Assembly: GCA_014240375.1 (NCBI GenBank)
Contig: JAAZXB010000007.1
Location: 80,350-144,349, forward strand
From: Planctomycetota bacterium
GTDB lineage: Bacteria > Planctomycetota > UBA8108 > UBA1146
DNA: 64,000 bases
Direction: 5' to 3'
Below the pieces are notes generated by a model. That model had not been told where the DNA came from. It saw only the letters and a list, made by a program, of their open reading frames with translations, and searched no databases. A program made the position numbers and the translations under genes. Shown piece by piece: positions 49,734 to 49,976 of the stretch (positions are counted from its first letter, which is position 1; each line of letters begins with the position of its first letter).

Positions 49734-49976
49734 CTAGGCCTGTTTCGCATCCAGCGAGGTAAAGATCTCTGAATGCTCTGGAAACCTGCTCAGCTCTTTC
49801 TTGCTAAAAATCAGGTCTCCGTCGACACAAACCTCGAAGACTCCGCCACCACTCTCGATCAGGCGAGTGGCTACTCCGTATTTTTGGTCAATTTCAGCCG
49901 CCAAACTGGTGGCCTGAGGCGTGTAGTTTCACTGCACGCAGTATTCGATGCTGATCTCCATGATCTCTCGCTCCAT
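49734..49976 (-). CDS. SelW/Rdx-family selenoprotein (CxxU), in-frame TGA at 49929-49931 read as selenocysteine
   Basis: Manual translation: MEREIMEISIEYCVQ-U-NYTPQATSLAAEIDQKYGVATRLIESGGGVFEVCVDGDLIFSKKELSRFPEHSEIFTSLDAKQA-stop. The 65 codons after the TGA stay open and carry the family hallmarks (GGGVFEV.VDG.LIFSKK....RFPE). The TGA sits exactly at the second redox position of CxxC/U. ATG 49961 is an alternative start. Confidence 0.75.
49896..49931 (-). other. UGA codon plus candidate bacterial SECIS hairpin
   Basis: RNA: UGA AAC UAC ACG CCU CAG GCC ACC AGU UUG GCG GCU. GGCCACC pairs with GGCGGCU (5 Watson-Crick pairs, 1 G-U, 1 A/C mismatch) around an AGUUU loop that starts 21 nt after the UGA. 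Confidence 0.4.

Follow-up and report, generated by a model that had tools for sequence, protein, structure and literature searches.

Between ettA and a divergent gene of the M20 peptidase family, a window of 64,000 nucleotides (nt) from an uncultured marine lineage of Planctomycetota (the whole stretch of DNA analysed here: contig JAAZXB010000007.1, positions 80,350 to 144,349) has a gap of 380 nt (49702..50081). Does this gap hold a gene, and if so, what is the meaning of the TGA codon that interrupts its reading frame? Mechanical calling of open reading frames (ORFs) places in the gap solely a 56-aa fragment starting at a TTG codon (49734..49904, minus strand) and an antisense ORF of 70 aa (49773..49985, plus strand). 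In the current analysis we predict that the gap contains a functional gene for a 75-residue SelW-like oxidoreductase of the thioredoxin fold with selenocysteine (Sec) in its catalytic CxxU motif, and a probability of about 0.93 is assigned to this reading. An earlier reading made from the letters of the DNA alone (referred to as the sequence-only reading) had proposed that ORF calling missed a gene here and that its TGA encodes Sec. The family match, the conservation of the TGA and a selenocysteine insertion sequence (SECIS) hairpin following it support both proposals.

Reading frame and start codon

The features of the locus considered in the analysis are the following.

49961..49734, minus strand: predicted coding sequence of the SelW-like (SelT/SelW/SelH, Rdx) selenoprotein, 75 codons, starting with the ATG at 49961 and ending with the TAG at 49736..49734
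49931..49929, minus strand: in-frame TGA read as Sec (U11), the second redox residue of C8-V-Q-U11 (motif codons 49940..49929)
49914..49896, minus strand: predicted bacterial SECIS hairpin, 5'-GGCCACCA-GUU-UGGCGGCU-3', with a stem of eight pairs that includes one A.C mismatch
49734..49904, minus strand: 56-aa TTG ORF, a truncated model and not a separate gene, covering only positions 19-72 of the Rdx profile
49773..49985, plus strand: 70-aa antisense shadow ORF, spurious, as the pattern of substitutions by codon position fits the minus-strand frame
48016..49701, minus strand: ettA, an ABC-F translational throttle (NCBIfam NF008775 EttA, 787 bits against a cut-off of 599)
50082..51443, plus strand: divergent M20 dipeptidase, adjacent on the 5' side (NCBIfam NF006053 dipeptidase, E 1e-156)

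The minus-strand frame that opens at 49976 reads MEREIMEISIEYCVQ-TGA-NYTPQ...DAKQA-TAG, its codons being ATG GAG CGA GAG ATC ATG GAG ATC AGC ATC GAA TAC TGC GTG CAG TGA AAC TAC ... GCC TAG. The 64 codons following the TGA are open up to the TAG, which is separated from the ATG of ettA at 49701 by 32 nt. The TTG at 49904, where the called fragment begins, is codon Leu20 of this frame and lies within the stem of the SECIS hairpin.

Two ATG codons are available as the start. The orthologues begin at the second of them, with the sequence M[E/D/K]ISIEYC, and the upstream residues MEREI are not conserved; the start is therefore placed at the ATG at 49961, and the coding sequence is likely to be 49961..49734 (75 codons) rather than 49976..49734. 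The ATG at 49976, which would add MEREI, was considered and rejected as the likely start, as these residues are unconserved and orthologues lack that ATG; it is retained as a possible alternative. The sequence-only reading had the frame, the TGA, the terminal stop, the 380-nt gap, the open stretch beyond the TGA and the 32-nt spacing right, and its start at 49976 is to be moved, probably by 15 nt downstream.

Family membership and predicted fold

A search with the translation in which U is replaced by C matches the Pfam family Rdx (PF10262) with an E-value of 3.3e-19 and a score of 69.3 bits (cut-off 22.6), over positions 1-72 of the 74 of the profile, that is, over the full length expected of a member of the Rdx/SelW family. 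The 75-residue form also passes the NCBIfam equivalog model NF041051, described as "SelT/SelW/SelH family (seleno)protein", with 98.5 bits (cut-off 88), and TIGR02174, "CXXU_selWTH", with 59.6 bits (cut-off 34.2). Among proteins of solved structure, matches were obtained to SelW-related proteins of bacteria, namely 2FA8 (E 1.2e-8), 3DEX, 2OKA, 2OJL, 2OBK and 2P0G, to MIEN1 of human (2LJK) and, with a weak E-value of 0.33, to mouse SelW (2NPB).

In these alignments C8-V-Q-U11 is aligned with CTQC of 2fa8, CEPC of 2ljk and CTQC of 3dex, so that the TGA column is that of the second Cys of the CxxC motif in the solved Rdx proteins (IAIRYCTQCNW in 2fa8), where the sequence-only reading had placed it. 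The first residue of the motif, C8, is invariant in the protein alignment (A1).

The fold has been judged on the AlphaFold model of a Cys-containing homologue (P0011, with the motif CETC) that is 60% identical to the window protein. This model has a mean pLDDT (predicted local distance difference test) of 80.8 and the order beta-alpha-beta-beta-beta-alpha, with the CxxC at the junction of beta1 and alpha1. Its top 23 matches in the PDB are all SelW-related proteins, SelW or MIEN1, followed by thioredoxins and glutaredoxins. When it is superposed on crystal structures of SelW-related proteins, the target-normalised TM-scores (template modelling scores) are about 0.8-0.9 (maximum 0.89), with a root-mean-square deviation of about 1 A. 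On the strength of the profile matches and of this model, the gap gene is a member of the SelT/SelW/SelH (Rdx) family, with a predicted fold that is thioredoxin-like.

Conservation of the TGA codon and selection on the frame

The closest orthologues (L001-L020), which come from marine metagenomes and metagenome-assembled genomes (MAGs) and are 71-95% identical over the called 56-aa fragment, have the TGA in every case, in frame after M[E/D/K]ISIEYC[V/L][Q/K]. For a wider representation one genome per species was scanned, which returned 312 relatives, and the best 80 were examined. Two DNA patterns served for retrieval, and the one that spans the Sec column admits only Cys or Trp codons there; loci with TGA were therefore retrieved through the C-terminal pattern, and the retrieval is not biased towards TGA.

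Among these best 80 of the 312 relatives, 78 species-level loci carry TGA and two carry TGC (Cys), and in all of the 80 the frame is open for about 60-65 further codons beyond the column. The TGA loci are spread over more than ten phyla, including Planctomycetota, Acidobacteriota, Eisenbacteria, KSB1, Marinimicrobia, Fibrobacterota, Fidelibacterota, Desulfobacterota, Vulcanimicrobiota and others; those of Desulfobacterota include an isolate, Desulfopila aestuarii DSM 18488. Cys forms are represented by P0011, the one such form among the database homologues, and by the two TGC loci, which belong to a Thermodesulfovibrio MAG (L073) and a Desulfofustis MAG (L095). The homologues thus carry either TGA or Cys at this column, as the sequence-only reading would have it. 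No frameshift and no stop codon downstream of the TGA was found in any of the relatives examined, and the signs of decay that this reading had named as evidence against itself are absent there.

In addition, the Thermodesulfovibrio locus keeps a small hairpin with a GUC loop (GCGA-GUC-UCGC, L073:10031-10076) at the position of the SECIS, which may be a relic of a recent switch from Sec to Cys; the Desulfofustis locus has no such hairpin.

The substitutions in 16 distinct sequences of the Planctomycetota clade provide information on how the frame is read. In codons 3-8, which precede the TGA and encode I-S-I-E-Y-C, the amino acids are constant and each third position varies; in the domain that follows the TGA the substitutions are concentrated at third positions too. 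Since variation of the silent type is found on both sides of the TGA, the two parts form one translated frame under purifying selection, and this pattern excludes a pseudogene as well as a stop codon followed by a fragment.

Elsewhere in the window TGA serves as a normal stop, as had been stated before on the basis of a few genes: the stop codons of the 46 called genes are TGA in 35 cases, TAA in six and TAG in five. A codon that ends 35 of 46 genes excludes a genome-wide reassignment. Some database homologues have W at the TGA column. The DNA was fetched for two of them and reads TGA; these W-containing proteins are gene calls made with genetic code 4 on short contigs, and translation with table 11 does not yield them.

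The predicted SECIS hairpin

A hairpin is present downstream of the TGA, within the region 49880-49931 that had been indicated earlier for a SECIS. Its stem begins 14 nt after the UGA, the G of its apical loop GUU (49906..49904) is 22 nt from the UGA, and all homologues that have the TGA are able to fold a hairpin at this position, in the same codon register. The bacterial SECIS consensus of Zhang and Gladyshev from 2005 reportedly calls for an apical loop that is small, has a G close to its beginning and follows the UGA at some 16-37 nt; the window hairpin fits this description.

Comparison of the homologues in an ungapped alignment of 68 distinct sequences (A2), in which the hairpin takes columns 18-36, allowed an explicit helix of eight pairs to be tested. 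In the loop, G26 is invariant and T27 is conserved in at least 90% of the sequences, so that the apical loop has the form G-U-Y. Standard pairs occupy 87.1% of the cells of the helix; sliding the 3' arm by 1-3 columns lowers this share to 20-49%. Both sides of the pair have changed in 46 cells, a number reached in none of 500 shuffles. The compensatory changes fall in four pairs, two of which (18-36 and 21-33) join third-codon positions, which are hardly or not at all constrained by the protein; at pair 21-33, for example, 52 sequences have CG, five GC, four UG and three UA.

The silent sites provide a second, different kind of evidence. In the 16 clade sequences described above, codons 16-20 (Q-A-T/A-S-L), which encode the 5' arm and the loop, show zero silent variation, and nearly all other conserved codons vary silently. 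This freeze of silent sites, taken together with the covariation, is the signature of a putative RNA element embedded in a coding sequence.

The A.C mismatch of the window stem (49910/49900, columns 22/32 of the alignment) is fixed in most of the Planctomycetota clade, in all but one locus (L033), which has G-C. It has also been found in two unrelated lineages (L036 and L053), and most of the other phyla have G-C or U-A. The mismatch may play the role of the stem irregularity known from other bacterial SECIS elements.

Observations that weigh against the selenocysteine reading

Several observations count against the reading of this gene as a selenoprotein gene, some of them concerning the hairpin and some the machinery for Sec insertion. 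The window hairpin taken alone is thermodynamically unremarkable (-9.9 kcal/mol with a z-score of -0.9 in a span of 31 nt, and a z-score of -0.25 in 76 nt), and it carries the A.C mismatch. RNAalifold recovered only the three most strongly covarying pairs, and the helix was derived from the same sequences on which it was tested, so that the control with slid partners favours it. As the fold of the single sequence is not significant, the case for the SECIS rests on the comparative data. A search of the locus against Rfam gave nothing but a chance match to a miRNA (E = 1).

With respect to the machinery, Pfam scans of about 40 ORFs revealed no selA, selB or selD in the 64-kb window, which belongs to a genome of several Mb. 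The window has no tRNA-Sec, indeed no tRNA gene at all according to ARAGORN, and no Rfam family at gathering thresholds. In tblastn searches with SelA, SelB and SelD of E. coli against the window and 100 related loci nothing was found below an E-value of 0.02, and ARAGORN identified no tRNA-Sec in 40 of the related loci (L021-L060). The absence of the machinery from the window and from the flanks of related loci is uninformative for a genome of several Mb. Indirect support for the machinery is given by the fact that selection has maintained both the UGA and the SECIS in this lineage. In addition, complete sets of Sec-insertion genes are encoded by several Planctomycetes (PMC4807772), and organisms whose Sec machinery has been verified are among those that have SelW-like selenoproteins (PMC1794560). 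A second selenoprotein gene was also sought in the window by scanning every in-frame TGA for a read-through context and a downstream hairpin, which returned only out-of-frame noise and an inverted repeat at 24219..24249 that is described in a later section.

With these points taken into account, the recoding of the TGA to Sec is well supported, and the codon is almost certainly a Sec codon.

Alternative readings of the TGA codon

The TGA could be an ordinary stop, the product of the locus then being the 56-aa fragment that starts at the TTG at 49904, or a leader of ten residues followed by re-initiation. For many orthologues the gene callers of JGI and NCBI produce precisely such a 56-aa model, the genome uses TGA as its main stop codon, and no Sec machinery was found in the window or the related loci searched. 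The fragment, however, is without strand beta-1 and the entire redox motif, as it corresponds to positions 19-72 of Rdx only, whereas the complete product matches the family profile from position 1 and the ten codons before the TGA are under purifying selection at the protein level in the same frame. The TTG has no Shine-Dalgarno-like sequence ahead of it, and its conservation is accounted for by its location within the hairpin stem. Nor is it expected of a stop codon that it should lie precisely at the Cys column in 78 species. We therefore consider an ordinary stop extremely unlikely.

An equally small chance is given to the possibility that the UGA is translated by means other than Sec, either through reassignment to Trp or Gly (genetic codes 4 and 25) or through insertion of Cys or Trp by a near-cognate tRNA under stimulation by the hairpin. 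In its favour, read-through can in some systems be stimulated by a hairpin that follows the stop codon, W stands for this codon in several database entries, and here too it is relevant that no Sec machinery was found in the window or the related loci searched. The W translations have been traced to code-4 gene calls on short contigs whose DNA reads TGA, however, and the 35 of 46 window genes terminated by TGA leave no room for a genome-wide reassignment. Moreover, the hairpin has the hallmark of a bacterial SECIS, namely a small apical loop that contains a G and keeps a fixed distance to the UGA. The codon occupies the catalytic Cys/Sec position of a documented selenoprotein family (PMC1088965, PMC2398784), and Trp or Gly at this position would destroy the motif.

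A decaying pseudogene of a Cys-containing Rdx gene would need only a single base change from TGC or TGT to TGA, and Cys forms do exist (L073, L095 and P0011), but its chance is next to negligible, as the supposed mutation must then have been retained by orthologues of 50-99% identity in more than ten phyla, none of which has acquired a frameshift or another stop. Moreover, the substitutions after the TGA are concentrated at third positions, and the hairpin is under selection.

Proposed mechanism of selenocysteine insertion

Under the favoured explanation, a SelW-like selenoprotein encoded across the TGA, the ribosome would start at the ATG at 49961 and meet the UGA at codon 11. At this codon SelB would deliver Sec-tRNA(Sec) in place of termination, docked on the intragenic SECIS hairpin, which begins 14 nt downstream, while the UGA is in the A site. 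Translation would then run 64 codons on to the TAG and give a product of about 8 kDa. Insertion of Sec is presumed to depend on SelA, SelB, SelC and SelD.

In the product, Cys8 and Sec11 at the beta-1/alpha-1 junction would cycle between the selenolate/thiol and the selenenylsulfide forms. Thiol/selenol redox activity is therefore predicted for the protein, which, judging by its fold and motif, may act as a thiol-dependent reductase. The presence of the gene implies the use of selenium by this lineage.

Gene order and the association with ettA

The divergent M20 dipeptidase gene, the SelW-like gene and ettA keep this order throughout the Planctomycetota clade, at EttA identities as low as 70%, the latter two sharing a strand and being separated by 32-40 nt; the order has not been seen in other phyla. 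The same-strand adjacency to ettA in the window, pointed out in the sequence-only reading together with the possibility of a common transcript, is thus a property of the clade. No terminator-like site was found in the 32-nt gap between the SelW-like gene and ettA, and co-transcription of the two is plausible from their arrangement.

A functional linkage may also be envisaged, in which the efficiency of Sec decoding at codon 11 would tune the expression of EttA; this we regard as very unlikely. If it were true, on a shared mRNA the selenium supply and SelB would set the ribosome traffic through the leader gene, and selenium or redox status would be coupled to the control of translation through EttA.

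In the MAG UWMA-0276 (DUAN01000026.1, L021) the SelW-like translation is identical to that of the window, the identity of 99% given by the scan being due only to the U-to-C residue of the query, and in a UBA1146 genome (CAVOEM010000007.1, L022) the protein is 95% identical. An EttA identical to that of the window is encoded on 23 marine metagenome contigs. The flanks of the locus in the clade comprise, on one side, genes for pirin, TrkH/TrkA, a SurA-like protein, an S41 peptidase and CutC, and on the other side a TPR/FG-GAP/ASPIC protein, an epimerase, an alcohol dehydrogenase and an altronate-dehydratase-like gene.

Other features of the window

Further features that have been identified in the window are the following.

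5482..6984, plus strand: sulfatase
7056..10592, minus strand: M9 collagenase
11694..15218, minus strand: 1174-aa DUF6797/laminin-G protein
21097..22407, plus strand, and 24275..25462, minus strand: two large proteins with multiple EF-hand calcium-binding motifs, flanking a GDSL lipase
26851..25555, minus strand: overlapping thyA-folA pair
30462..33491, plus strand: fused alpha/beta-hydrolase-transglutaminase protein

The window also encodes fumarase C, leucyl-tRNA synthetase and a ferritin-like protein. A perfect 14-bp inverted repeat, ACGCCGCGTCCGGAG T CTCCGGACGCGGCGT (24219..24249, about -29 kcal/mol), is situated between the convergent genes of the GDSL lipase (22930..24177, plus strand) and of the second EF-hand repeat protein (24275..25462, minus strand). 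It is preceded by a run of A and followed by T-rich sequence, and it looks like a bidirectional terminator. At 2283..2530 on the minus strand, 82 codons are open in frame ahead of a TGA at 2283, just before the ORF of a major facilitator superfamily transporter (1009..2271, minus strand). This open stretch fills the entire intergenic gap of 269 nt and is probably due to chance.

Misannotation of the orthologue group

In all the gene calls and database entries examined (including those of L001-L020 and L103-L110) the orthologues of this gene are called wrongly, and this occurs in three ways. The first is the 56-aa fragment from the TTG inside the SECIS, which is found in the calls of JGI and NCBI (P0001-P0005 and others); one of these (P0001), 95% identical, bears the JGI name "selT/selW/selH-like putative selenoprotein". 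The second is the antisense 70-aa shadow ORF, called in assemblies with an EttA identical to that of the window and having no Pfam hit on record. The third is the full-length protein in which the TGA has been translated as W by genetic code 4, found on short contigs of ENA.

NCBI curates a "(seleno)protein" model (NF041051), and the window gene passes it. The value of the case for annotation is that it shows why the selenoproteomes of uncultured marine Planctomycetota are under-counted.

Comparison with known systems

SelW-like proteins formed the most abundant family in the Sargasso Sea selenoproteome, with 48 Sec forms against seven Cys forms (PMC1088965), and again in the Global Ocean Sampling (GOS) data, with 427 Sec forms against 56 Cys forms and an enrichment in marine samples (PMC2398784). 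The ratio of 78 to 2 obtained in the current analysis, for the best 80 of 312 relatives, agrees with these figures. The bacterial SelW-like selenoproteins known from the Sargasso Sea and GOS metagenomes and from genomes including those of Desulfotalea psychrophila and Geobacter sulfurreducens (PMC1088965, PMC2398784, PMC1794560) have the same size of about 75 aa, the same CxxU right after the first beta strand and the same conserved block GGGVFEV...FSKK...RFP. They share with the window gene the in-frame UGA, the intragenic hairpin with a G in the apical loop, and the marine origin.

The Cys-containing Rdx proteins of solved structure, from Agrobacterium (Atu0228, 2FA8), Streptomyces (SAV_2001, 3DEX), Pseudomonas (2OBK and 2OKA), Vibrio (2P0G) and Bordetella (2OJL), have the same fold and the same position of the motif, and are related to the window protein with E-values of 1e-8 to 3e-3 and about 25-31% identity. 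They differ in having CxxC in place of CxxU and a length of about 100 aa with short extensions. Selenoprotein W of mammals (2NPB) and MIEN1/C17orf37, its paralogue with Cys (2LJK; PMC3527542), likewise have the same fold, with CxxU or CxxC at the beta1-alpha1 junction. In eukaryotes the SECIS is located in the 3' untranslated region and is read by SBP2/eEFSec, whereas the predicted element described here lies within the ORF after the UGA and is of the bacterial SelB type.

The SECIS of E. coli fdhF, the paradigm of the bacterial elements, is a hairpin of the coding region that follows the UGA on its 3' side at a distance that is short and fixed; its small loop contains a conserved G-U, and its stem has an irregularity under the upper part. 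The window hairpin shares this general layout and differs in sequence, in its loop of 3 nt, which grows to 5 nt on opening of the A-U closing pair, and in having the A.C mismatch in place of the bulged U. From the bacterial SelW-like selenoproteins nothing of substance distinguishes the window gene, the local features being the mismatch fixed in the clade and the position directly upstream of ettA. As bacterial SelW-like selenoproteins with CxxU and an intragenic SECIS have been catalogued since 2005, the gap gene is an unexceptional member of a familiar family whose genes are regularly broken by gene callers; it was missed through a gene-calling error and is not a discovery.

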